Shown here one piece after another: positions 1-50,187 of a DNA stretch of 64,000 nucleotides. The DNA lies in the NCBI GenBank assembly GCA_913048435.1, contig CAJWWC010000001.1:25281-89280 (forward strand). Reading direction: 5' to 3'. The notes below the pieces were generated by a model that saw only the letters and a list, made by a program, of their open reading frames with translations, ran no database searches and was not told the origin of the DNA. Position 1 is the first letter of the stretch. Each line of letters starts with the position of its first letter. The stretch comes from an uncultured Flavobacteriales bacterium. Lineage in GTDB: Bacteria; Bacteroidota; Bacteroidia; Flavobacteriales; UBA7312. The position numbers and the translations under genes were made by a program.

Positions 1-1201
1 CATCAGGAATTTTAGCAATCGATTGCATAATTTCACTGATAAGATTTACTTTTTTGATTGGATCATTTTTACTTTTTTCGTCCAGTAAGTTAATTTTGAA
101 CTCTACGAAATCTTGAACTTGCTCATTGATGTATTGAGTTAATCCTTCTGGTCCATATTTTTTGGTATAGCTGTCGGGGTCTTCGCCTTCAGGTAAAAGT
201 GCTACTTTGACGTTCATATTTTCGGTATGTATTAGGTCAATGGCTTTTGTCGCTGCATTAATTCCTGCATAATCAGAATCGAATAGAAGTATAATGTTTT
301 TGGTGTATCGACTAATCATTTTTATTTGCTCTGAGCCAATAGCAGTACCAGATGATGCTACCACATTTTCAACGCCTGATTGATACATGGATATAACATC
401 TGTGTAGCCTTCAACGATTAAGCAACTGTCATTTTTTACTATGGCAGACTTGGAAAAGTACATACCATACAAGACTTTTGCTTTGTGATAAATTTCACTT
501 TCTGGAGAGTTGAGGTATTTTGCTTTTTCGTCTTTTTTTAAGGCTCGTCCACCAAATCCGAGTATTCTACCAGAAATGCTATGAATAGGAAAAATAACTC
601 GCCCCTTGAACCTATCAAAAGTCTTGTCTTCTTTGAAAATACTAAGCCCTGTCTTTTCTAAAAATTCTTGCTTATGGGATGATTCTAAAGCAGACTTTGT
701 AAAAGCGTCCCAACTGTCAGGGTTGTAACCCAACTGGAATTTATTTATAATTTCTTCCGAAAGACCTCTTTCTTTGAAGTAGCTTAAGCCTACAGCTTTA
801 CCTTCTACGGTTTTGTGTAAGCTATTTCGAAAGTAATCATTGGCGAATGAATTTACAATAAATAAACTTTCTCTAAGATTATATTTTTCTATCTGCTCAG
901 GTGTTTGCTCCTCTTTCGGAACTTCAATATTGTATTTTTTGGCGATATATTTGAGAGCTTCGGGATATGATAGTTGATCAATTTCCATAACGAAGTTCAC
1001 GGCATGACCACCTTTACCACAACCGAAACACTTATAAATGTTTTTTGTAGGAGAAACGGTAAAAGAAGGAGTTTTTTCGTCGTGAAAGGGGCAATTACCG
1101 ATCATATTTGCACCTCTTTTTTTGAGGTTAACAAAGTCTCTTACAACCTCTTCTATTCGGGCTGTTTCAAAAATGGTATCTATGGTTTCCTTCGGAATCA
1201 T
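1..1201 (-). CDS. dnaG: DNA primase DnaG, N-terminal ~400 aa (gene continues beyond window start)
   Basis: Own translation of the minus strand from ATG at 1201: MIPKETIDTIFETARIEEVVRDFVNLKKRGANMIGNCPFHDEKTPSFTVSP...CFGCGKGGH (CHC2 zinc finger), then TOPRIM motifs EGYTDV and LFDSDYAG. It is absent from the ORF track because it is open at the window edge. The start overlaps the ispB stop as ATGA. Confidence 0.9.
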   Translation of the reverse strand, partial: MIPKETIDTIFETARIEEVVRDFVNLKKRGANMIGNCPFHDEKTPSFTVSPTKNIYKCFGCGKGGHAVNFVMEIDQLSYPEALKYIAKKYNIEVPKEEQTPEQIEKYNLRESLFIVNSFANDYFRNSLHKTVEGKAVGLSYFKERGLSEEIINKFQLGYNPDSWDAFTKSALESSHKQEFLEKTGLSIFKEDKTFDRFKGRVIFPIHSISGRILGFGGRALKKDEKAKYLNSPESEIYHKAKVLYGMYFSKSAIVKNDSCLIVEGYTDVISMYQSGVENVVASSGTAIGSEQIKMISRYTKNIILLFDSDYAGINAATKAIDLIHTENMNVKVALLPEGEDPDSYTKKYGPEGLTQYINEQVQDFVEFKINLLDEKSKNDPIKKVNLISEIMQSIAKIPD

Positions 1202-2172
1202 TTTTTTCTTTCGATAACGAAATTTACTAAAAGTTCTAAAGACTTTCGGCTTTCATTATCATCAAAAGTTTTCAACAAACTCAAGGCTTCTTTTTGGTAG
1301 GCTTTCATTTTTTCAACCGTGTAGTTTATTCCACCACTTTTTTTAACTATTTCTAATACCTTAGAAACTCGATCACTATTGGTATTGTGATTTTTTACAG
1401 TTTGAATAATGAATTTCTTTTGTTTTCTATCGCAATTTCTTAAGGTGTAAATAAGAGGTAAGGTCATCTTTTGCTCTTTGATATCAATACCTGTAGGTTT
1501 GCCAATAACATCATCGTTGTAGTAATCGAATAGGTCATCTTTCATTTGAAAAGCTATACCTATCAGTTCACCAAATTTTCGCATTCTCTCGACAATTACT
1601 TGGTCTTGTTTGGCAGTGACAGCACCACAAGCACAACAAGCCGCAATAAGTGTTGCTGTTTTTTGTCTTATAATTTCAAAATATACGTCTTCTTCGACAT
1701 CAAGTTTACGGGCTTTTTCTATTTGTAAAAGCTCTCCTTCACTCATTTCTTTGACCGCTTTAGAAACAATTTGAAGTAAATCATATTCTTCATTTTCTAA
1801 AGACATTAGTAGTCCTTTTGATAAAAGGTAATCTCCAACAAGTACTGCAATTTTATTTTTCCAAAGGGCGTTAATAGAGAAAAAACCCCTTCGCATATTC
1901 GCATCATCAATAACGTCGTCGTGTACTAATGTGGCTGTATGCAAAAGTTCAATGAGTGAGGCTGCTCTGAAACTACTTTCGTTGATTTCACCAAAAAGTT
2001 TTCCACTAAGAAAAACAAACATAGGACGCATCTGTTTACCCTTTCTTTTTACGATATAGTGCAATATTTTATCTAAAAGAGAAACCTTACTAATTAAGGA
2101 GTCTTTAAACTTCTTTTCAAACAAGAGCATCTCTTGTTGAATAGGTTTTTTAATCGCTTTTATGGTGTTCAT
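1198..2172 (-). CDS. ispB: Long-chain all-trans polyprenyl diphosphate synthase (octaprenyl/IspB-like)
   Basis: 324 aa with two Asp-rich motifs, LVHDDVIDD and FQMKDDLFD. Small residues (A,T) at -5/-4 before the first motif fit a long-chain product. Confidence 0.85.
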   Translation of the reverse strand: MNTIKAIKKPIQQEMLLFEKKFKDSLISKVSLLDKILHYIVKRKGKQMRPMFVFLSGKLFGEINESSFRAASLIELLHTATLVHDDVIDDANMRRGFFSINALWKNKIAVLVGDYLLSKGLLMSLENEEYDLLQIVSKAVKEMSEGELLQIEKARKLDVEEDVYFEIIRQKTATLIAACCACGAVTAKQDQVIVERMRKFGELIGIAFQMKDDLFDYYNDDVIGKPTGIDIKEQKMTLPLIYTLRNCDRKQKKFIIQTVKNHNTNSDRVSKVLEIVKKSGGINYTVEKMKAYQKEALSLLKTFDDNESRKSLELLVNFVIERKK

Positions 2173-2201: not shown

Positions 2202-3251
2202 CTAGGATTTTACGAGTTTATTGGCAAGTTGACCACAAGCAGCGTCAATGTCTTCACCTCTACTTCTTCTGATATTTACAATAAGGTTTTTGATTTCAAG
2301 ATAGTTAACAAAAGCATCTACTTTTTCTTTTTTAGCTTGTTGGAATTCGCCATCGTCGATAGGGTTATATTCAATAATATTGATTTTACAGGGTGTAATT
2401 TTCGCAAAGCTAGCTAGCTCTTGAGCATCGCTAATTTCATCATTGAAGTCCTTAAAAATGATGTATTCGTAGGTTACTCTTATTTGAGTTTTTTCATAAA
2501 AATAGACAATGGCTTCTTTTAATGCTTCTAAGCAGTTTTGTTCATTAATAGGCATTATGTAGTTTCGCTTTTTATCATTTGCAGCGTGCAAGGAGAGTGC
2601 CAGATTAAATTTGATTTCATCATCGCCTAGCTTTTTTATCAGCTTTGCGATCCCAGCAGTAGAAACTGTAATACGTTTTGGCGACATACCAAGTCCGTTT
2701 TTAGAGGTAATTTTATCTATAGATTCTAGAACATTTCTATAGTTTAACAGAGGTTCGCCCATACCCATGTAAACAATATTGCTCAGCTTTTGATTGTAAT
2801 TGTTTAGCGCTTGTTCGTTTAGCATAAATACTTGATCGTAAATTTCATCAGCATTTAAATTTCTCAGTCTGTCTAATTTACCTGTAGCACAAAATTTACA
2901 TGTTAAACTACAGCCTATTTGAGAAGATATACAAGCTGTTATTCTCCTTTTGGTAGGGATTAGTACTCCTTCAACTTTATTATTGTCATAAAGGCCAAAA
3001 GCAGATTTTATGGTGCGGTCAGCACTTTTTTGTGATTCTATAATTTTGGCGTGTAGAATTACAAAGTGCTCATCTAACAGTTGAATTGTTTCTCTAGAAA
3101 TATTTCGCATTTCTTCAAAGGAAGACACCGACTTTTTCCATAGCCATTCATATACTTGTTTGGCTCGAAAAGTGGGTATATCATTTTCTTTGAAAAAGTC
3201 CTTAAGTTCGTCTAAGTTAAGTTTGCGAATATTTTTTTTATCTAAATGCAT
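2202..3251 (-). CDS. rlmN: 23S rRNA (adenine2503-C2)-methyltransferase, radical SAM
   Basis: 349 aa with radical-SAM cluster motif CSLTCKFCATG, C-terminal DIDAACGQL, and typical N-terminal FRAKQVYEWLW. Confidence 0.9.
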   Translation of the reverse strand: MHLDKKNIRKLNLDELKDFFKENDIPTFRAKQVYEWLWKKSVSSFEEMRNISRETIQLLDEHFVILHAKIIESQKSADRTIKSAFGLYDNNKVEGVLIPTKRRITACISSQIGCSLTCKFCATGKLDRLRNLNADEIYDQVFMLNEQALNNYNQKLSNIVYMGMGEPLLNYRNVLESIDKITSKNGLGMSPKRITVSTAGIAKLIKKLGDDEIKFNLALSLHAANDKKRNYIMPINEQNCLEALKEAIVYFYEKTQIRVTYEYIIFKDFNDEISDAQELASFAKITPCKINIIEYNPIDDGEFQQAKKEKVDAFVNYLEIKNLIVNIRRSRGEDIDAACGQLANKLVKS

Positions 3252-3288
3252 AGAGCGTACAAAGATAGTATCTTTGTACGCTCTATGC
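3248..3288. repeat. Perfect 41-bp palindrome (20-nt arms, 1-nt centre) containing two mirrored TATCTTTG boxes and both divergent start codons
   Basis: The arm at 3248-3267 is gcatagagcgtacaaagata, the centre at 3268 is g, and the arm at 3269-3288 is tatctttgtacgctctatgc. The two arms are exact reverse complements, verified base by base. Confidence 0.95.
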
Positions 3289-4418
3289 GCTACTTAACAT
3301 CAGATATCATTTTTACGGCTTTTTCTAGTCCCATTTATGATGGTGTTTTGGTTGTTGATGATGATGGAAGAATTGAAGATTTACTAAATAATAAGCGACA
3401 GATAGATAATGCCAATTTAGAATATTTTAGAGGTGCACTTTGCCCCGGATTTATTAACACTCATTGTCATTTAGAGTTGTCACATTTGCAGGGAGAGTTA
3501 GCTTCAAAAACAGGATTAGCTCATTTTATTAATTCAATTGGTCAAATTAGAAAGGCTAGTCAGCGACGAAAAAACCATGCCTTTAAGTTAGCAGACAGAC
3601 AGATGTATAACAATGGCATTGTGGCTGTTGCAGACATTAGTAATACAGCAGATTCTTTTTCTGTAAAAGCTAATAGTGCCATATACTATTATACCTTCAT
3701 CGAATTATTTGCCTCTAACCCCCAAAAAGCTGAAGAAGTATTTGAACGAGGACTGCAATTAAGCCAAGAATGTAGCACACCCAATTCTTTAACACCTCAT
3801 GCTAACTATTCCGTTTCTTTACCGCTTTTCGAAAAGATTAGATATCACAATAGGGGAGAAATTATCAGTATACACAGTCAAGAAACGCCTGATGAAGACA
3901 CTATGTTTTTGACAGGCAGTGGTCAATTATTGTCACAACTTATTGCCAAAGAATTTTTCAAGTATACAGGCAAGACAGCACTTCAAAGCACCCTTCCTTT
4001 ATTGCCAGAATCTCCTATTTTATTAGTCCATAATACCTTTACCAAAGAAGAAGACATGTCAGAAGCCATATCCAATTTTGATAGCCTTTATTGGTGCACT
4101 TGTCCCAAAGCCAATTTATATATAGAAAATCAATTGCCTAACTATCAGCAGTTTGTTGATGCTCAAGCCAAAATGACGATTGGAACAGATAGTTTAGCTT
4201 CTAACGATACGTTATCTATTTTGGAAGAAATGAAAACGATACAAACTCATGTTTCTTTGGAGCTATTGATGGAATGGGCTTGTAAAAACGGGGCTGAATT
4301 TCTTGGAATTGATGCTTTAGGAACTTTTCAAAAAGGTAAAATGCCTGGCATCAATTACATCAATCATATCGTAGATAGTAAGTTAACAGCAGATAGTCAA
4401 GTCAAAAAGTTATTCTAA
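3285..4418 (+). CDS. Amidohydrolase-superfamily protein (metal-dependent deaminase/chlorohydrolase-like, substrate unknown)
   Basis: Motifs GFINTHCHLELSH (metal-binding HxH), SIHSQE, and IGTDSLASND. The ATG at 3285 is preferred over the track start 3246, because 3246 would translate the palindrome and overlap the rlmN start. Confidence 0.7.
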   Translation: MRYLTSDIIFTAFSSPIYDGVLVVDDDGRIEDLLNNKRQIDNANLEYFRGALCPGFINTHCHLELSHLQGELASKTGLAHFINSIGQIRKASQRRKNHAFKLADRQMYNNGIVAVADISNTADSFSVKANSAIYYYTFIELFASNPQKAEEVFERGLQLSQECSTPNSLTPHANYSVSLPLFEKIRYHNRGEIISIHSQETPDEDTMFLTGSGQLLSQLIAKEFFKYTGKTALQSTLPLLPESPILLVHNTFTKEEDMSEAISNFDSLYWCTCPKANLYIENQLPNYQQFVDAQAKMTIGTDSLASNDTLSILEEMKTIQTHVSLELLMEWACKNGAEFLGIDALGTFQKGKMPGINYINHIVDSKLTADSQVKKLF

Positions 4419-5084
4419 CATTAAATTGATGTAAACTTGAGCTTTCTTTAAGTCTTCTGGTGTTGTGATTTTAATATTTTCTTTATTCCCTTGAACGAGT
4501 TGTATCTCTATTCCCATAGATTCCACAACTGCAGCGTCATCAGTAAATTTAGGCGAATAGTCTTTTTGATAGGCTTTTAATAATACTTCACTTCTAAAAC
4601 ATTGAGGTGTTTGAACAATAAGGTAATCGTCTCTATTAACAACAACACTGCCACTATTGGTCTTTTGTCTCAAGCTTTCTTCAATTTCTAAGACTGGAAT
4701 AGCAGTCCCTTTCTTTTTAGCCGTATTTATACATTCATTAACCACACTATTTTTAACGAAAGGACGAACGCCGTCGTGTACGGCAATAACAGATTGCTCA
4801 TTGACTTTTTTCAAAGCATTACCAACCGATTCAAAACGTGTGTTACCACCCTCGATAATATGATGATTTACTTTAAATTGGTGTTTTTTACAAAGTTTTT
4901 TCCAATTATGTAACTCAGATTTTGGTAATGCTAAAATGATTTCAGAATGGTCTAAACTTTGGTGCATTTTTTCAATGGTATGCATCAAAATTGGCTTTGA
5001 GTTGAGGTTTAAAAATTGCTTTGGAATAGTAGAACCCATACGACTTCCTCTGCCACCAGCAACTATAATAATATATTTTTTCAC
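4410..5084 (-). CDS. ispD: 2-C-methyl-D-erythritol 4-phosphate cytidylyltransferase
   Basis: 224 aa with N-terminal IIVAGGRGSRMG, then VHDGVRPF and QTPQCF motifs. Confidence 0.9.
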   Translation of the reverse strand: MKKYIIIVAGGRGSRMGSTIPKQFLNLNSKPILMHTIEKMHQSLDHSEIILALPKSELHNWKKLCKKHQFKVNHHIIEGGNTRFESVGNALKKVNEQSVIAVHDGVRPFVKNSVVNECINTAKKKGTAIPVLEIEESLRQKTNSGSVVVNRDDYLIVQTPQCFRSEVLLKAYQKDYSPKFTDDAAVVESMGIEIQLVQGNKENIKITTPEDLKKAQVYINLMLE

Positions 5085-22880: not shown

Positions 22881-22888
22881 CAAAAATA
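22881..22888 (-). promoter_or_regulatory. -7 box TATTTTTG, 5 nt upstream of the ispG ATG (leaderless candidate)
   Basis: The reverse complement of caaaaata. The spacer is TTTCG, then ATG at 22875. Confidence 0.5.
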
Positions 22889-25189: not shown

Positions 25190-27007
25190 TTAAGACAAGT
25201 TTTGATAGTCTTGCAAACTCTTGTAAAGCCCTTCTTTTTGGATAAGCTCTTGGTTGGTTCCTTGCTCAATAATTTCTCCTTCTTTAATTACTAATATATT
25301 ATCGGCATTTTGAATGGTAGAAAGTCGGTGAGCAATGACTAAAGAGGTTCTGTTTTTCATGAGTTGCCCCAAGGCTTCTTGTACCAATTTTTCTGACTGG
25401 GTGTCTAGTGATGAGGTGGCCTCATCTAGTATAAGTATTGGAGGATTTTTATAAATAGCTCTGGCAATACTTAGACGTTGCTTTTGTCCGCCAGACAATT
25501 TACTGCCTCCTTCGCCAACATTACTATTATATCCTTCAGCCATTTCCATCACAAAATCGTGAGCATTGGCGGCTTTGGCAGCGTCAATAACATCATCTAT
25601 ATTGGCGTCTTCATAGCCTAAAGTGATGTTATTAAATACACTGTCATTGAACAGTATAGAGTCTTGAGAAACAATACCCATCAGCCCTCTCAATTCAGAA
25701 AGTTTAAAGTCTTTAATATTGACACCATCAATAGTAATTTCTCCCTTTTCGATATCGTAAAAACGTGCCAATAAATCGGCAATAGTAGATTTACCACTTC
25801 CAGATTCTCCTACCAAAGCAATGTTTTGACCTAACTTTATGTCGAAACTGATGTTTTTCAAAACAGTTTGAGTGTCGTATTGAAAGCTAACATTTTTAAA
25901 ACTCAATTGCTGATTAAAGCCTTTACCTTTGGAAACCTTAGGGTCTTTAATGCTGTTTTCCGTTTCTAAAATATCTAATACCCTTTTAGATGAAGCACTT
26001 CCTTTTTGTAAATAGTAAAAGGCCGTAGTAAAGGATTTAGCAGGAGGTATAATTTGAGAAAAGATAGCAATGTAGCCAATAAATGCCTCGGGTGATAGAC
26101 TATTTTCACTGCCCAAAACCAATTGACCACCGAACCACATTACGCAAACAAGTACTATCGTACTCAAAAATTCACTCATTGGAGATGACAAATCTTTTTT
26201 ACGTAAAAGCTTAGTCATAGTTTTACGATAGTCATCGCTATTTTTTTCAAATTGGGATTGTACGATATGTTCAGCTCTGAAGGCTTTTATGATGCGTAAT
26301 CCACCAATGTTTTCTTCAATATTTGACAATATTTCTCCCATCTTGCTTTGCCCTTTTTGAGATGATTTTTTAAGACTTTTGCCAATACGAGCAATGAGAA
26401 ATCCAGCAATAGGAAATAAGACAATAACAAATATGGTTAGCTCAGGACTAATTAATACTAAACTGGCTAAGAATATGATGATATTAAGCGGATCTTTAAA
26501 AATCATTTCTAAAGAACTCATAATGGACCATTCTATCTCTACAAGGTCTGTTGTCATTCGTGCAATGATGTCACCTTTTCTTTTTTCAGTATAATAGCCA
26601 AGGGGCAAGTGGAGTACCTTTTTATGCAAAGCATTTCTCATATCTCTCACTACACCATTGCGTATGGGCGTAAGAAAAAATAAGGCTAAGTATCGGAAAA
26701 GATTTCTAAATAAAAACATAGCGAGTACTAGACCACATATAAAAAGTAAGGCGTCAATTTGACCTCTTGTTTCTATTATTTGTGTAATTTGAAAGTAGAA
26801 ATTCTCTGTAATAGATGTTGTGCTAAATGCCAAAGGAGGTGCTTGGTAAACCTTTTCTTGAGTACCAAATAATAGACCTAAGAAAGGAATAATCATCGTT
26901 ATTGAAACCAAGGAAAAGAGTACTGTAAGGATATTAGAGATAATATTGAATACAGCATATTTCCAGTAAGGTTTAGCAAAACGTAACACCCTTAAAAAAT
27001 CCTTCAT
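25190..27007 (-). CDS. ABC transporter, fused permease/ATPase (MsbA-like exporter family)
   Basis: 605 aa with six N-terminal TMs, Walker A GESGSGKST, signature LSGGQKQR and Walker B ILILDEATS. Confidence 0.85.
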   Translation of the reverse strand: MKDFLRVLRFAKPYWKYAVFNIISNILTVLFSLVSITMIIPFLGLLFGTQEKVYQAPPLAFSTTSITENFYFQITQIIETRGQIDALLFICGLVLAMFLFRNLFRYLALFFLTPIRNGVVRDMRNALHKKVLHLPLGYYTEKRKGDIIARMTTDLVEIEWSIMSSLEMIFKDPLNIIIFLASLVLISPELTIFVIVLFPIAGFLIARIGKSLKKSSQKGQSKMGEILSNIEENIGGLRIIKAFRAEHIVQSQFEKNSDDYRKTMTKLLRKKDLSSPMSEFLSTIVLVCVMWFGGQLVLGSENSLSPEAFIGYIAIFSQIIPPAKSFTTAFYYLQKGSASSKRVLDILETENSIKDPKVSKGKGFNQQLSFKNVSFQYDTQTVLKNISFDIKLGQNIALVGESGSGKSTIADLLARFYDIEKGEITIDGVNIKDFKLSELRGLMGIVSQDSILFNDSVFNNITLGYEDANIDDVIDAAKAANAHDFVMEMAEGYNSNVGEGGSKLSGGQKQRLSIARAIYKNPPILILDEATSSLDTQSEKLVQEALGQLMKNRTSLVIAHRLSTIQNADNILVIKEGEIIEQGTNQELIQKEGLYKSLQDYQNLS

Positions 27008-27011
27008 AGTG

Positions 27012-27019
27012 CAAATGTA
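27012..27019 (-). promoter_or_regulatory. -7 box TACATTTG, 4 nt upstream of the ABC exporter ATG (leaderless candidate)
   Basis: The reverse complement of caaatgta. The spacer is CACT, then ATG at 27007. Confidence 0.5.
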
Positions 27020-27051: not shown

Positions 27052-27059
27052 TATCTTTG
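27052..27059 (+). promoter_or_regulatory. -7 box TATCTTTG, 4 nt upstream of the rbfA ATG (leaderless candidate)
   Basis: tatctttg, then ttct, then ATG at 27064. Confidence 0.5.
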
Positions 27060-27063
27060 TTCT

Positions 27064-27399
27064 ATGGAAAGTACAAGACAAAAGAAAGTTTCTAGGCAGT
27101 TGTTGAAGGATTTGTCAGAAATATTACAACTCAAAGGAAGGGACTTAATAGGCACTTCTTTAGTGTCCGTTACGGTAGTTAGAATCTCTCCTGATTTATC
27201 AATTGCTAGAGTATATATTAGTGTTTTTGGCACTCAAGATAAAGACGCTTTATTGGCTAAAATGAATAAACAGTCTTATGCTATTCGCAAAAAATTAGGG
27301 CAACGCATACGCAACCAAATGCGTAAAGTACCCGAACTGAAGTTTTTTCTTGACGATTCTGTCGATTACTCTTTAAAGATAGAAGATTTATTAAAGTAA
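27064..27399 (+). CDS. rbfA: Ribosome-binding factor A
   Basis: 111 aa. RQKKVSRQLLKDLSEIL...VSVTVVRISPDLSIARVYISVF is typical RbfA. Confidence 0.85.
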   Translation: MESTRQKKVSRQLLKDLSEILQLKGRDLIGTSLVSVTVVRISPDLSIARVYISVFGTQDKDALLAKMNKQSYAIRKKLGQRIRNQMRKVPELKFFLDDSVDYSLKIEDLLK

Positions 27400-29326: not shown

Positions 29327-29842
29327 TTATGCCATTAGCTGTCCCCCAAAAAAGTTTTCGTATTCAAAATCGTAAAAAATAGAATCACCTATTGTTTTAC
29401 CACTGCTATTGTGGGCTTTATAGACGTCGGTATTAATAATTTCTTGAAATTCGACAAACAAACTGTCTCCATCGACTTGAGCTGAAACTTGTGTATAATC
29501 TGCTGTGGGGTTGTCAGTATAAGTGTGAACTTTTGCCCAATTTCTGATTTTAATTTGACTGGGGTTATGTTTATTTTGAACAATTTCTATCGTGTAGTTT
29601 CGTTGGCCTTCCCATTCACCAGGAATCATGCCGCCAGTAATACTATCATTAATGGAATATATACCTGTAAAATTTTCACTCAAATACTTACAAGAACCAT
29701 TATCTTTTACGGCATTTAAGTCATAATTTAGGGCTAGTAAATCTGTGCAGCCTTCTTCTTCTTTGCATGAGGAGTAAAATAAGGAAACTGCTACCATAAT
29801 AATAAAAATGGATTGTGGTTTAAGCAAATTCATATTCTCCAA
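29327..29842 (-). CDS. Hypothetical lipoprotein with a Cys-framed CTDxxAxNYDxxAxxDNGSC module
   Basis: About 168-171 aa with a signal peptide ending LFYSSC, followed by GCTDLLALNYDLNAVKDNGSCKY. I recognised no other family. The 5' end overlaps the dusB 3' end by 14-23 nt depending on which Met is used. Confidence 0.5.
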   Translation of the reverse strand: MENMNLLKPQSIFIIMVAVSLFYSSCKEEEGCTDLLALNYDLNAVKDNGSCKYLSENFTGIYSINDSITGGMIPGEWEGQRNYTIEIVQNKHNPSQIKIRNWAKVHTYTDNPTADYTQVSAQVDGDSLFVEFQEIINTDVYKAHNSSGKTIGDSIFYDFEYENFFGGQLMA

Positions 29843-30815
29843 ATGTATGTTCTATTTCGTAAAGAATCTCAAAAAGTTCTTCTGGCTGTTGTGCTGTCAC
29901 TAATCGCATTCTGTATTCTTTAAAATTTGGAATATGCTTAAAATAATTGGTGTAGTGTCGTCTTGTTTCTACAACACCTAAGATAGGACCTTTCCATTTT
30001 AAGGAAAATTCCAAATGCTCTTTACATACATCTATGCGTTCTTTCATAGTTGGCTTAGACAGTTCTTGACCTGTTTTTAGAAAGTGTTTTATTTCATTAA
30101 ATATCCAAGGGTAACCAATGGCAGCACGACCTATCATAATACCATCAACACCGTATTTATCACGCTTTAGTTGTGCAGTCTGTGGGCTATCCACATCGCC
30201 ATTTCCAAATACAGGAATGTGCATGCGTGGGTTGTTCTTGATCTCGGCAATAAGACTCCAATCGGCTTCTCCCTTATACATCTGTTTACGTGTACGACCG
30301 TGTATTGCAATAGCTTTGATACCAACATCTTGTAGTCGCTCAGCAATTTCAACGATGTGTTTGCTATTATCGTCCCATCCCAATCGTGTTTTTACGGTTA
30401 CAGGCAAATGAGTGGCATTGACAATCTCTTTAGTCATGGATACCATCTTTGGGATATCTTTGAGTATGCCCGAACCAGCTCCCTTGCAGGTCACCTTTTT
30501 TACTGGGCAACCATAATTGATATCTATGAAGTCAGGGTTCACCTTCTCACATATTTTAGTGGTTTGCTTCATGGACTCTATATCATGTCCAAAAATTTGA
30601 ATGGCTAGTGGGCGTTCGTAGTCGAAGAAATCCAATTTTTGAGTACTCTTTACCGCATCACGTATTAGACCCTCTGAAGAGATGAATTCTGTGTACATAA
30701 CATCTGCTCCATGACGTTTGCACAATGCACGAAATGGCGGGTCACTGACATCTTCCATGGGGGCTAATAATAATGGAAAATCACCTAAAATGATATTACC
30801 TATCTTTACACTCAT
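29820..30815 (-). CDS. dusB: tRNA-dihydrouridine synthase
   Basis: LLLAPMEDVSDPPFR, GCPVKKV and HGRTRKQMY motifs. The start is taken at the ATG at 30815 (MSVKIGNI...), which is supported by a -7 box 5 nt upstream. The track start 30863 would overlap the CPBP gene. Confidence 0.85.
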   Translation of the reverse strand: MSVKIGNIILGDFPLLLAPMEDVSDPPFRALCKRHGADVMYTEFISSEGLIRDAVKSTQKLDFFDYERPLAIQIFGHDIESMKQTTKICEKVNPDFIDINYGCPVKKVTCKGAGSGILKDIPKMVSMTKEIVNATHLPVTVKTRLGWDDNSKHIVEIAERLQDVGIKAIAIHGRTRKQMYKGEADWSLIAEIKNNPRMHIPVFGNGDVDSPQTAQLKRDKYGVDGIMIGRAAIGYPWIFNEIKHFLKTGQELSKPTMKERIDVCKEHLEFSLKWKGPILGVVETRRHYTNYFKHIPNFKEYRMRLVTAQQPEELFEILYEIEHTFGEYEFA

Positions 30816-30820
30816 TTTTG

Positions 30821-30828
30821 CAAAATTA
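30821..30828 (-). promoter_or_regulatory. -7 box TAATTTTG, 5 nt upstream of the dusB ATG (leaderless candidate)
   Basis: The reverse complement of caaaatta. The spacer is CAAAA, then ATG at 30815. Confidence 0.5.
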
Positions 30829-36029: not shown

Positions 36030-36037
36030 TAGTTTTG
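36030..36037 (+). promoter_or_regulatory. -7 box TAGTTTTG, 3 nt upstream of the GT9 ATG (leaderless candidate)
   Basis: tagttttg, then ata, then ATG at 36041. Confidence 0.45.
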
Positions 36038-36040
36038 ATA

Positions 36041-37018
36041 ATGATTAAAAAACAGAAAATTTTAGTGATAAGATTTTCATCTATTGGTGATATTATATTA
36101 ACTACTCCAGTCGTTAGAGAACTTAAACAAAAAAACTTTATCATACATTTTTTAACTAAGTTCAATAATATTTCAACTATTAAGAATAATATTTTTATTG
36201 ATAAAATATATGTAATCAATAAATCAATTTATGAGATTGTATGTGATTTAAAAGAAGAAAGCTATGATGTAATTGTTGATTTACATAATAATTTAAGATC
36301 AAATTTTTTAAGAATAATTTTAGGTGTAAGAACTCTTAAAATCAGAAAAAATAACTTAGCTAAATTTTTATTTATAAATTTTGGTATTGATTTACTAAAC
36401 AATCAGCATGTAGTTAACAGAAATTTAAAAGTTATAAGCACTTTAGTTAACGATAAATATGACGACAATGGGCTCGACTTTTTTATTGATTTCAATAGCG
36501 TAAAAATCCATCTAACTGAAGATAAGTATATTGTTTGGTCGCTTTCCGGGTCTCACGATAATAAAAAGCTAACTTTTAAAATCATTAATGAAGTATTATT
36601 AAAAATTGATATTCCAATTGTATTCATAGGCGGTAATGATGATTTCATATTAGCAGATAAATTAGTAAAAAGTCACAACAAAAAAATACATAATTATTGT
36701 GGAAAAACAACATTAGATGAATCAGCTGCAATTATTAACAATTGTATAATTTTATTATCTAATGATACAGGAATGATGCATCTAGGAGCAGCTTTAAAGA
36801 AACCTATTATTTCTTTTTGGGGTTGTACTAAACCTTCTTTAGGATTTTATCCATATCAAAGCAATAATTTTTCAGAATTTGTTGTTTCAAGAAAATACTC
36901 TAGACCATGTTCAAGACATGGCCAAAAGTGTCGTGGAAAAAATAAATGTATTACAAGTATTAGTTCAGAAGAAATATTAATGAAATTACAATTATTTTTT
37001 GATAAAAAGAGCTTTTAG
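36041..37018 (+). CDS. Glycosyltransferase family 9 (LPS heptosyltransferase-like)
   Basis: KILVIRFSSIGDIILTTPVVRELK and SNDTGMMHLGAAL are GT9 hallmarks. GC is very low: hand counts give 20/100 at 36241-36340 and 23/100 at 36601-36700. Confidence 0.75.
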   Translation: MIKKQKILVIRFSSIGDIILTTPVVRELKQKNFIIHFLTKFNNISTIKNNIFIDKIYVINKSIYEIVCDLKEESYDVIVDLHNNLRSNFLRIILGVRTLKIRKNNLAKFLFINFGIDLLNNQHVVNRNLKVISTLVNDKYDDNGLDFFIDFNSVKIHLTEDKYIVWSLSGSHDNKKLTFKIINEVLLKIDIPIVFIGGNDDFILADKLVKSHNKKIHNYCGKTTLDESAAIINNCIILLSNDTGMMHLGAALKKPIISFWGCTKPSLGFYPYQSNNFSEFVVSRKYSRPCSRHGQKCRGKNKCITSISSEEILMKLQLFFDKKSF

Positions 37019-37507
37019 CTCATCAGCATCTTCTGGTTTTAATCTTCCTGAAAGTATTAAGCTTAATTGACGTCTTCTTAATGCTGCGTTGTAGCGTTTT
37101 TTTTCAACTTTAGATTCGGCAATAATCGAAGGAACAGAAATAGGGTTGCCTAATTGGTCAACCGCTACAAATGTAAAGATGGCCTCATTACATTTTACTC
37201 GACCTTTAGTAGTTTGATTTTCCATCCAAACATCTACAAACACTTCCATAGAAGATTTGAAAGCTCGCGAAACCTTTGCCTCAAGAGTTACAATACTGGC
37301 TCTGGGAATAGGCTTTTCAAAAGACACATTGTTGACAGAAGCTGTAACAACAATTCTACCACAATGGCGATGTGCAGATATAGCAGCGGCTATATCCATC
37401 CAGTGTAGTAGACGACCGCCCATAAGATTATCCAAGTTATTAGTGTCATTAGGAAGTACCATCTCAGTAAGAGTAGCTAAACTTTGTAAAGAAGTTCTAG
37501 AAGACAT
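36992..37507 (-). CDS. Acyl-CoA thioesterase (hotdog fold, YciA/Acot-like)
   Basis: 171 aa. LPNDTNNLDNLMGGRLLHWMDIAAAISAHRH is typical of this family. Confidence 0.75.
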   Translation of the reverse strand: MSSRTSLQSLATLTEMVLPNDTNNLDNLMGGRLLHWMDIAAAISAHRHCGRIVVTASVNNVSFEKPIPRASIVTLEAKVSRAFKSSMEVFVDVWMENQTTKGRVKCNEAIFTFVAVDQLGNPISVPSIIAESKVEKKRYNAALRRRQLSLILSGRLKPEDADELKALFIKK

Positions 37508-47811: not shown

Positions 47812-50187
47812 ATGTGGTTAACTGTAGCTCGAGTAATTCTAAGATTTAGAGCCGTATTCATATGGCTTATATTGGTTTCTACATACCTCATGGTACAAAA
47901 GTCAAATAACGTTAATCTTTCCTATTCAATGGCTAGATTACTGCCTAAAGATTCTGATATACAATTAAATTACAATTATTTTGTAGAAAAGTTTGGTATC
48001 AAGGATAATATTATGATCATTGGTGTTGAATCCGAAGATTTTTTTGATTTAGACAATTTTAAGTACTGGCAAAATTTTGAGGATAGTTTAAAATCTATTC
48101 CTGGTGTTGAGGAGGTTTTCTCAATCACAGATGCGGTTGACCTACAAAAGAGCAAAACAGAAAAAAAGTTAGTCATCGAGGCGCTATTTGAAAATATAAC
48201 AAATCAAAAATCTCTTGACCAAAAAGCTTCAAAATTACAACAATTGCCATTTTATGATAATAGGCTAATTAATGATCAGGCCATGTTGATGCTAGTATCA
48301 TTAAGTAATGATTATGTGACTAGTAATAGGCGAGTTAATATGATAAACTCTATTACCAATTTTGGAAAAATCTATTCTAATTCAACTCAAAAAGAAGTAA
48401 AATATTCGGGTCTTCCGTACATAAGGACCGTGCACTCAGAACTAATACGAAAAGAAGTTGGTTTATTTATTTTCTTGGCTCTTTTGGTTACTGCCATTAT
48501 CTTATTTTTCTTTTTCAGATCAATAAAAGTTATGATAATTTCAATTTTAGTTGTTGGCATTGGTGTTATTTGGTCATTTGGTAGTCTTGGAATTTTAGGT
48601 TACGAGATAACAATACTTACTGCATTAATACCACCACTTTTAATTGTAATTGGAGTCCCCAATTGTATTTTCCTAATTAATAAATATCACAATGAATTTA
48701 GAGAGCATGGAAACAAGTCTAGATCTCTAGTTCAGATGATTAGACGTGTGGGTAACATTACCATTCTAACTAATACCACCACGGCATTGGGTTTTGCTAC
48801 ATTTATTCTAACTTCTAGTAAAGATTTACGACAATTTGGCTTAGTTGCCTCTATAAATATATTAGCAGTTTTTATTTTGTCTTTGTTGCTCATTCCTATA
48901 ATTCTTAGCTATTTAAAACCACCTAATAAACGTCATGTTAGTCATCTTGACAGAAAATGGCTAAATAAATTAATACAAAAAGTTACCTACTTTGTTACCG
49001 AAAAGAGAACAGCAGTATATGCCACTACAATTGTGATTATTTCCATTGCTATTTTTGGACTTTTTCAAATGCATATTGCTGGAAATATTACGGATGATAT
49101 TCCCAAAGAGTCAATACTTTACAAAGACATAAAGTTTTTTGAAAAGCATTACAAATCCGTTATGCCTTTCGAAATTATTATTGACACACATAGAAAGAAC
49201 GGTATTACTAAACTATCTACCCTTAAACGCATCAACAAATTGTCCGATACTTTGATGACATATGAAGAGTTTTCTAGGCCAATTTCAATTGTCGACCCTA
49301 TCAAATATTCTAAGCAAGCTATATATAACGGTGAAGAACAATTTTATACTCTACCCAATTCTCAAGAAAAAAAATGGCTCTTTGATTATACCATCAATAG
49401 TGAATCCCCTAGTGAATGGATGAATGCTTTAGTAGATGAAAATCAACAAGTAGGTCGAGTAAGTTTATATGTTACAGATATAGGTACCTCGAGAATGAAA
49501 GAGATAAAAAACGATTTACGTGTGAAAATTGATCAGATTTTCAACCCTGAAAAGTACAAAGTGATACTAACTGGTATGAGTGTTGTTTTTTTAGAAGGTA
49601 CAACATACTTAGTAAAAAATCTATTTATTAGTCTATTTTTAGCCATCTTATTGATATCATTTTTCATGGCTTGGATGTTCAACTCATTTAGAATGGTTGT
49701 TGTTTCTTTGATTCCAAATCTAATTCCATTACTTATAACTGCATCTATAATGGGTTATTTTGGTGTTTCTATTAAACCTTCTACAATATTAGTATTTAGT
49801 ATTGCTTTTGGTATTTCTGTTGATGATACTATACACTTTTTAGCAAAGTACCGACAAGAGCTAAAATATAAAAATAATAATATAAAAGACTCAGTTGTTT
49901 CTGCTATAAAAGAAACAGGTGTTAGTATGTTTTATACATCAATTGTTTTATTTTTCGGGTTTTTTATATTTTTAGCTTCACAGTTTGGAGGAACATTAGC
50001 TTTAGGCATATTAGTTTCAATCACTTTATTAATTGCTTTATTATCAAATTTAATAGTTTTGCCCGCAATGTTATTAAGTTTAGAAAAGTCTCTTATTGAA
50101 GAAGCTATAAGTGATCCTTTACTTGATGTTTTTGATGAGGAAGAAGATATTGAATTAAAAGAATTGACTATTAATAATAAGTTATGA
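47812..50187 (+). CDS. RND-superfamily / MMPL-type (sterol-sensing-domain-like) exporter
   Basis: 791 aa with two blocks of about 6 TMs, each preceded by a large periplasmic loop. Contains [15 protein letters not shown] and [20 protein letters not shown], as in the HpnN/MMPL family. Confidence 0.75.

Follow-up and report, generated by a model that had tools for sequence, protein, structure and literature searches.

Does a long perfect palindrome that holds the start codons of two divergent genes act as one symmetric control element, or is only a part of it functional? The question is raised by positions 3248-3288 of a 64-kb stretch of DNA from an uncultured Flavobacteriales bacterium (the whole stretch is referred to as the window), where rlmN and an amidohydrolase gene diverge from a perfect 41-bp palindrome. 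Our analysis favors, with fair but not full confidence, a composite origin. The central 17 bp (3260-3276) would be a pair of minimal back-to-back promoters for the Bacteroidota housekeeping sigma factor, and the outer arms a recent copy produced by template switching. The features on which the argument depends are as follows.

3248-3288, no strand: perfect palindrome (20+1+20), the lineage-specific extended form, also present in contigs L012 and L205-L211
3260-3276, no strand: conserved 17-bp core, CAAAGATA-G-TATCTTTG, two predicted -7 boxes back to back, 1 nt apart
3269-3276, plus strand: predicted -7 box TATCTTTG (positions -12 to -5) of the amidohydrolase promoter, based on the sequence and the motif in PMC6847099
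3260-3267, minus strand: predicted -7 box TATCTTTG of the rlmN promoter, based on the sequence and the rlmN promoter of Flavobacterium psychrophilum
3277-3284, plus strand: 8-nt spacer TACGCTCT on the amidohydrolase side, with a predicted start at 3281 or 3282 and a leader of 3-4 nt
3252-3259, minus strand: 8-nt spacer TACGCTCT on the rlmN side, with a predicted start at 3255 or 3254; a derived copy
3268, no strand: central base, position -13 of both predicted promoters, C or G only among relatives
2202-3251, minus strand: rlmN, dual-specificity RNA methyltransferase, 349 aa, ATG at 3251-3249, with Pfam and NCBIfam matches
3285-4418, plus strand: amidohydrolase, 377 aa, ATG at 3285-3287, Pfam Amidohydro_1

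Sequence and authenticity of the palindrome

Direct reading of 3248-3288 gave GCATAGAGCGTACAAAGATA-G-TATCTTTGTACGCTCTATGC, that is, two 20-nt arms (3248-3267 and 3269-3288) flanking G3268, and a repeat finder likewise returned arms that are 100% complementary and 1 nt apart. Each arm contains, in order, TATCTTTG, the 8-nt spacer TACGCTCT, and ATG, and the two start codons are separated by 33 bp. In these respects the original prediction, which was made from the letters alone, described the locus correctly: the perfect 41-bp palindrome, the box, identical spacer and start codon in each arm, and the positions of both start codons all stand. Its statement that such a repeat is far beyond chance in 64 kb was also confirmed. 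No other perfect inverted repeat of at least 14 nt was found in the window, and the 20-nt arm, with up to three mismatches allowed, matched only its own two sites, with 0 matches expected from 100 shuffles. An imperfect, A/T-rich inverted repeat with 30-nt arms of 73% complementarity occurs at 36937-37000, at the meeting point of the convergent ORFs 36035-37018 (plus strand) and 36992-37507 (minus strand), and may mark a bidirectional terminator region.

An assembly or amplification artefact had been named as an outcome that would undo the prediction. The palindrome is not an artefact because the identical 41-mer is present in eight other contigs, namely a Tara scaffold (L012) and L205-L211, which originate from different samples and assemblers. 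The exact RlmN protein of the window is encoded on at least seven further contigs (L205-L211) as well as on the Tara scaffold, and all of these are 100% identical to the window across the 1.5 kb compared. As a separate observation, contigs matching the window at 100% over this 1.5 kb were obtained from at least eight marine samples, which points to a very homogeneous and widespread population carrying this sequence.

Conservation of a 17-bp core

For comparison, rlmN loci were fetched from species-representative genomes and metagenomes. Sixteen homologues of the junction (the window, L001-L005, and L012-L021) were collected, representing 13 distinct lineages of uncultured marine Flavobacteriales and Cryomorphaceae-like bacteria, with N-terminal RlmN identities to the window of 65-91%. 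The core CAAAGATA-S-TATCTTTG, where S denotes C or G, is intact in all 16 sequences, apart from a 2-nt center in L013; the flanking positions vary. The perfect arms are 20 nt long in the window, 19 nt in L014/L015 (a 19+1+19 version; RlmN identity of 87%), and 8-10 nt in all the other homologues. Pairing of the outer 12 nt of the arms is seen in the window and one sister lineage only; in the others it has decayed. The conserved object, as judged from this comparison, is a pair of TAnnTTTG boxes on opposite strands with a 1-nt gap, and not the 41-bp palindrome. The proposal that both genes share one symmetric control element of 41 bp thus goes too far: conservation across the 13 lineages is confined to the 17-bp core, and the outer 12 nt of each arm are probably without function.

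In 364 kb of rlmN-centered Bacteroidota DNA, box pairs with a 1-nt gap were found at the rlmN junctions and at one further match (50045), which falls inside the span of an open reading frame (ORF; 47812-50187). Because this sample is small and centered on rlmN, it is silent on whether back-to-back boxes form a general class.

Predicted promoters and start sites

The housekeeping sigma factor of Bacteroidota uses a -7 element, TAnnTTTG (revised as TAHHTTTG), that spans positions -12 to -5 and is followed by the transcription start 4-5 nt further on (PMC6847099). The junction carries one such box per strand with a single base between them, which would drive rlmN leftwards and the amidohydrolase gene rightwards. 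Application of the 4-5 nt rule places the predicted starts at 3281/3282 on the plus strand and at 3255/3254 on the minus strand, 26-28 bp apart, and both mRNAs would begin with CUCUAUGC and carry leaders of 3-4 nt.

The promoters of Flavobacterium johnsoniae hardly show a -33 element and are marked more clearly by A/T-rich motifs at -18 and -28 (PMC6847099). At the junction, positions -14 to -21 of each promoter coincide with the box of the opposite one, which might thereby supply an A/T-rich upstream segment. Both promoters would fit within one RNA polymerase footprint, so polymerase binding would be mutually exclusive, with a single orientation occupied at a time. For bidirectional promoters of Escherichia coli, mutual exclusion has been demonstrated, and competition matters only at high activity (PMC12825309).

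A mapped start site is available for the same gene in the related genus Flavobacterium. According to Tables S2 and S3 of PMC9723704, rlmN of F. psychrophilum (769221-770264) has a SigA-class start site (THC0290_T_0532) at 769221, the A of its ATG, and the promoter is printed as TAAATTTG-CACC-ATG. This is experimental evidence from F. psychrophilum that a box followed by 4 nt and ATG yields a leaderless rlmN mRNA, and by analogy the same may be expected in this class of bacteria. In nine of the junction homologues (L003-L005 and L016-L021), the rlmN-side spacer is 4 nt long, and a truly leaderless rlmN mRNA is predicted there. More broadly, 20 of 91 Bacteroidota rlmN loci have a 4-nt spacer between the nearest box and a plausible ATG, and 15 have one of 7-8 nt.

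Short spacers also recur elsewhere in the window, where TATCTTTG is the most frequent box variant. Six further genes have a TAnnTTTG box 3-6 nt ahead of their ATG; the boxes are listed below.

22881-22888, minus strand: TAnnTTTG box near an ATG
27012-27019, minus strand: TAnnTTTG box near an ATG
27052-27059, plus strand: TAnnTTTG box near an ATG
29840-29847, minus strand: TAnnTTTG box near an ATG
30821-30828, minus strand: TAnnTTTG box near an ATG
36030-36037, plus strand: TAnnTTTG box near an ATG

Two of them serve a second divergent pair of genes, 25190-27007 (minus) and 27064-27399 (plus), in which a box lies 4 nt before each ATG and the boxes are 32 bp apart; the 1-nt abutment at rlmN is therefore not the sole arrangement used in the window. 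A large share of the transcription units in the window look leaderless, and leaderless initiation may be far more important in this streamlined marine lineage than in model Bacteroidota. In published maps, 5' untranslated regions shorter than 10 nt were reported for 3.7% of Bacteroides thetaiotaomicron mRNAs, leaders of 10 nt or less for approximately 13% in F. johnsoniae, and leaderless mRNAs for 5.5% in F. psychrophilum.

Among the roles suggested in the original prediction, we favor the mirror-duplicated bidirectional promoter with near-leaderless mRNAs. It is supported by the invariance of the boxes and of their 1-nt spacing in the 13 lineages, by the frequency of short box-to-ATG spacers in the window and at Bacteroidota rlmN loci, and by the start site mapped at the rlmN ATG of F. 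psychrophilum. The term "mirror-duplicated" is apt as well, since the rlmN-side spacer in the clade of the window is derived and reproduces the amidohydrolase side exactly, as described in the next section.

Origin of the perfect arms

To follow the history of the arms, 1.5 kb of flanking coding sequence was used to construct a neighbor-joining (NJ) tree, on which the spacers were mapped. On the rlmN side, every outgroup lineage has a spacer of 4 nt: TGCC in L018, L020, and L021; CGCC in L003 and L019; TAGC in L004; and CATG in L005. TGCC is identical in three deep lineages. Since all the outgroups have a 4-nt spacer on this side, the ancestral state was a 4-nt spacer of the leaderless type. 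In the window and L014/L015, this spacer is 8 nt long and complements the other arm exactly (TACGCTCT), a state that occurs in the clade of the window alone. The remaining lineages of the clade have TGCGCTCT (L001 and L013), TAAATTCT (L002), or CTCT, left by a 4-nt deletion (L016/L017), and the arms have decayed by one mismatch in L013, two in L001, and three in L002. The spacer on the amidohydrolase side is conserved in the closer relatives, that is, in the in-clade lineages and in L003, L018, and L019.

The central base shows a second unusual pattern. It is C in eight sequences and G in seven, and A or T in none. Parsimony gave five changes on the NJ tree and four to five in 200 of 200 bootstrap trees, all of them between C and G. 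In the flanking genes, changes between C and G account for 5.9% of 2,713 inferred changes and for 7.7% of those involving C or G, and the probability that all four to five changes at the center would be of this kind through point mutation is ~3.5e-5 to 3e-6. The central base changes as often as a fast third-codon position (mean of 3.4 changes).

Arm homogenization and spacer inversion are the two products described for template switching between short inverted repeats (PMC8604942, PMC13100816, PMC7202029), and the counterparts of both are present here. A clustered change from TGCC to TACGCTCT raised the complementarity of the arms (8/8) in one clade, and the center was exchanged for its reverse complement four to five times. 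As read from these alignments, the one-step lengthening of the arms to a perfect complement and the inversion of the center are signatures of template switching. We propose that a short palindrome already existed and that a template switch within it during replication duplicated the leader and ATG context of the amidohydrolase gene on the rlmN side. The copy would have displaced the ancestral 4-nt rlmN spacer in one clade and later decayed in sister lineages, and the same hairpin-mediated process would have inverted the central base repeatedly. The perfection of the 41-mer would then be recent, and the extension is probably neutral or non-functional.

The center of one homologue deserves separate mention. 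L013 (1475-1492) has a 2-nt center, CAAAGATA-CG-TATCTTTG, which gives the even palindrome GATAC|GTATC; another template-switch event or a sequencing error in a single contig could account for it. Phase variation through rapid flipping of the center was also considered and rejected, because near-identical contigs all share the same center.

Evidence that weighs against the proposed promoters

Several observations speak against this interpretation or limit it. By-eye reading at about 19-21 nt upstream of each box revealed no -33 TTG/TTTG on either side; this element has been reported to be weak or undetectable in Flavobacterium (PMC6847099). Both start sites at the junction are predictions from the box positions, and with 8-nt spacers the start site is not the A of the ATG. 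Very short leaders are poorly translated in systems of the E. coli type, which implies either ribosomes that accept such leaders in these bacteria or a shifted start site. In both boxes the two free positions are always TC, and the gap between the boxes is always 1 nt; a further constraint, for example a bound protein, could lie behind this. With respect to the neutrality of the outer arms, the clade comprises six distinct lineages, and in two of them, the window and L014/L015, the extension is perfect or nearly so; some selection for it is possible.

A stronger version of the proposal can also be formulated, in which the 17-bp core represents a dedicated minimal class of bidirectional promoter for the Bacteroidota-type sigma factor. 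The boxes would also serve one another as upstream A/T elements, competition for polymerase would link the expression of the two genes, the shared 5' end CUCUAUGC would have been retained in this lineage because it co-tunes or equalizes initiation and translation, and the growth of the palindrome would be adaptive. We regard this version as unlikely, roughly a one-in-several prospect.

Flanking genes and neighborhood

In the family searches, the rlmN product matches the Pfam families RlmN_N and Radical_SAM and scores 373 bits against NCBIfam TIGR00048 (cut-off, 290). The amidohydrolase matches Pfam Amidohydro_1. Its nearest solved relatives are aminofutalosine deaminases (7lkj with E = 2e-13, then 3v7p and 2imr), and its best NCBIfam match is the aminofutalosine deaminase family at a sub-threshold 101 bits (cut-off, 320). 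Its start at 3285 is kept in all the relatives and was chosen by independent gene callers (377 aa). The ORF list extends this frame to an in-frame ATG at 3246, which is present only in the lineage of the window; this ATG was rejected as the start of the amidohydrolase gene because it is absent from all the relatives. It exists on the opposite strand because codon 2 of rlmN is CAT (His) in the window; this codon is TCT or TCA (Ser) in every relative. The resulting ATGCAT (3246-3251) is itself palindromic, and the CAT codon lengthens the arms from 19 to 20 nt.

On its downstream side, rlmN is followed by a polyprenyl diphosphate synthase gene and dnaG; ispD, queA, truB, and uppP are located past the amidohydrolase gene.

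1198-2172, minus strand: polyprenyl diphosphate synthase (long-chain), downstream of rlmN, with its own TATCTTTGTAC box

This box, at 2201-2194 on the minus strand, abuts the rlmN stop codon and lies 21 nt ahead of the synthase ATG, and from its position the synthase gene may not depend on the rlmN promoter. The 12-mer GTATCTTTGTAC is common to the region of this box and the plus-strand arm of the palindrome. The amidohydrolase and the polyprenyl synthase could both serve menaquinone synthesis, which could provide a rationale for coupled expression.

Alternative explanations

The strongest competitor is an operator, also suggested in the original prediction: a dimeric regulator bound to the palindrome or to the 17-bp core would cover both -7 boxes and co-repress or co-activate the rlmN/polyprenyl synthase operon and the amidohydrolase gene. 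The perfect symmetry, the restriction of the center to C or G, and the possible link through menaquinone synthesis (an amidohydrolase nearest to aminofutalosine deaminases on one side and a polyprenyl synthase in the operon on the other) would fit an operator, and the TC positions and 1-nt spacing that are invariant across all the lineages would also suit a bound dimer. The promoter consensus, however, accounts for every conserved part; among the boxes of the window TATCTTTG is the most common form, and the neighboring promoter carries TATCTTTGTAC. The outer arms, which would lengthen an operator, are unconserved. No regulator gene adjoins the locus (the neighbors are dnaG, polyprenyl synthase, ispD, queA, truB, and uppP), and no second site with up to three mismatches occurred above chance in the 64 kb searched. 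The operator role found no support here, and we consider it improbable.

The palindrome might alternatively work as a DNA structure, in which supercoiling between the diverging units would drive cruciform extrusion and switch both promoters off or on. A single strand of it folds at -21.5 kcal/mol as DNA (z = -9), its center is A/T-rich, and the signatures of inversion and homogenization indicate that hairpin intermediates form at the site over evolutionary time. Such mutational signatures, to which the support for a cruciform-forming element is limited, require only rare replication intermediates. In 10 of the 13 distinct lineages, the perfect arms measure only 8-10 nt, which would not sustain stable extrusion, and the arrangement persists there all the same; the center is identical in all the near-identical contigs, so there is no rapid switching. 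A cruciform function is, in our assessment, quite improbable.

Still lower stands an RNA hairpin. The original prediction noted that RNA reading through the palindrome on either strand would bury a start codon in a 20-bp stem; read-through or antisense transcripts might accordingly fold into a stem of 19-20 bp that hides a start codon or triggers processing. The hairpin itself is stable, as a spanning RNA folds at -31 kcal/mol (z ~ -8) on either strand, and the mismatches in L001 and L013 are compatible with G.U pairs on the rlmN-sense strand. The probability that two transitions would be wobble-compatible on one strand by chance is ~0.25, and the outer stem is broken without compensation in L002, L016/L017, and all the outgroups. 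Transcripts from the predicted starts would hold one arm only, and cannot form the stem; they show no excess structure (z ~ 0). No Rfam family was matched except eukaryotic miRNA-hairpin models far under their thresholds, and no terminator-like T-run was found. The stem is therefore stable but probably irrelevant, and we give an RNA-level function very little credence.

The probability that the palindrome is an artefact or a chance event, or that it belongs to a family of dispersed repeats or mobile elements, is practically negligible: amplified or chimeric assemblies can yield perfect palindromes at inverted junctions, but eight other contigs are identical, a 19+1+19 version occurs in L014/L015, homologous cores exist in 13 lineages, the chance expectation is 0, and the element is present in a single copy in the window.

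A terminator was rejected, in line with the original prediction, because the genes diverge from the element and a scan detected no terminator-like site there; this sigma-70 promoter/terminator scan is uninformative for this phylum. The exact 17-bp core has 113 matches in viral contigs, with G, A, T, and C at the center in 31, 30, 28, and 24 cases, respectively. The arms of these matches are nearly always extended by only 0-2 nt, and ~30 of the 113 belong to one recurring conserved sequence family. The viral matches look like chance or unrelated occurrences, and a mobile or phage-borne element was rejected. One viral contig, L164 (IMGVR_UViG_3300045988_119058), has the same core with perfect arms of 13+1+13 at ~4409-4435 (GCTACAAAGATAGTATCTTTGTAGC); it might represent a similar back-to-back promoter in a Bacteroidota phage.

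Implications

If the predicted starts are true, the locus would exemplify compact and conserved divergent transcription from abutting Bacteroidota -7 boxes, in which the 25-33 bp between two genes would suffice to express both, with mRNAs that have no leader or almost none. The concept of the bidirectional promoter, so far based on the -10 hexamer, would then reach a phylum with a different promoter grammar, and a very small bidirectional part would become available for Bacteroidota engineering. Whatever the function, the junction is a clean natural record of bacterial template-switch mutation, in which a leader was transplanted by arm homogenization and a one-base spacer was repeatedly inverted. 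For genome scanning, it teaches that a long perfect palindrome at divergent gene starts can consist of a conserved promoter core and a recent mutational extension. Neither the promoter nor the template-switch point opens a new field.

Comparison with known systems

The nearest functional analogue is the bacterial bidirectional promoter, described in Proteobacteria, Actinobacteria, Firmicutes, and archaea (10.1101/2020.01.31.928960; NAR 2026, PMC12825309); the present case is known from sequence alone. Bacteroidota were outside the phyla analysed in the preprint of Warman, Forrest, Wade and Grainger (10.1101/2020.01.31.928960). A text search of the literature, incomplete in its coverage and thus weak evidence, returned no paper that joins TAnnTTTG with bidirectional promoters. 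In both cases, short pseudo-symmetric DNA, often located between divergent genes, holds the melting elements of two divergent transcripts, whose starts lie within one polymerase footprint so that the orientations exclude each other (at the present locus, a prediction). The known bidirectional promoters have overlapping -10 hexamers and starts 7-25 bp apart, mostly 18 bp. Here, in contrast, asymmetric 8-bp -7 boxes abut with 1 nt between them, the predicted starts are 26-28 bp apart, and near-leaderless mRNAs are predicted. Because the Bacteroidota -7 box is an asymmetric 8-mer, abutment is the tightest arrangement it allows. As judged from the predicted starts, the locus falls outside the strict definition of a bidirectional promoter (an overlapping or shared -10 element with starts 7-25 bp apart).

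The individual promoters can be compared with the sigma-ABfr promoter of Bacteroidota, -33 TTTG / -7 TAnnTTTG (cited in PMC6847099, PMC7366714, PMC9723704). The consensus TAHHTTTG box is present in both arms, the -14 to -21 segment is A/T-rich, and the distance to the ATG fits the published box-to-start distance of 4-5 nt plus a leader of 3-4 nt. Unlike the sigma-ABfr promoter, those at the junction have no recognizable -33 TTG, and the upstream half of each sits within the other promoter and the first codons of the other gene. The leaderless rlmN promoter of F. psychrophilum belongs to the same gene and has a SigA-type box just before the ATG, with the 4-nt spacer seen in the outgroup lineages. 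The spacer in the window is 8 nt, so that a short leader is predicted, and the promoter sequence printed for F. psychrophilum has no inverted second -7 box beside its box.

The origin of the arms resembles the quasipalindrome template switches reported previously (PMC7202029, PMC8604942, PMC13100816, PMC8794818): a multi-nucleotide change perfected and lengthened an imperfect inverted repeat, the center was repeatedly swapped for its complement, and the site is a promoter, as in the yeast GRE2 case. It differs from them as a natural bacterial example traced through phylogeny only, and in that the copied content is a 5' leader and start-codon context moved to a divergent neighbor. Taken as a whole, the locus offers a neat variation on a promoter arrangement already described, rather than a system of a new kind.

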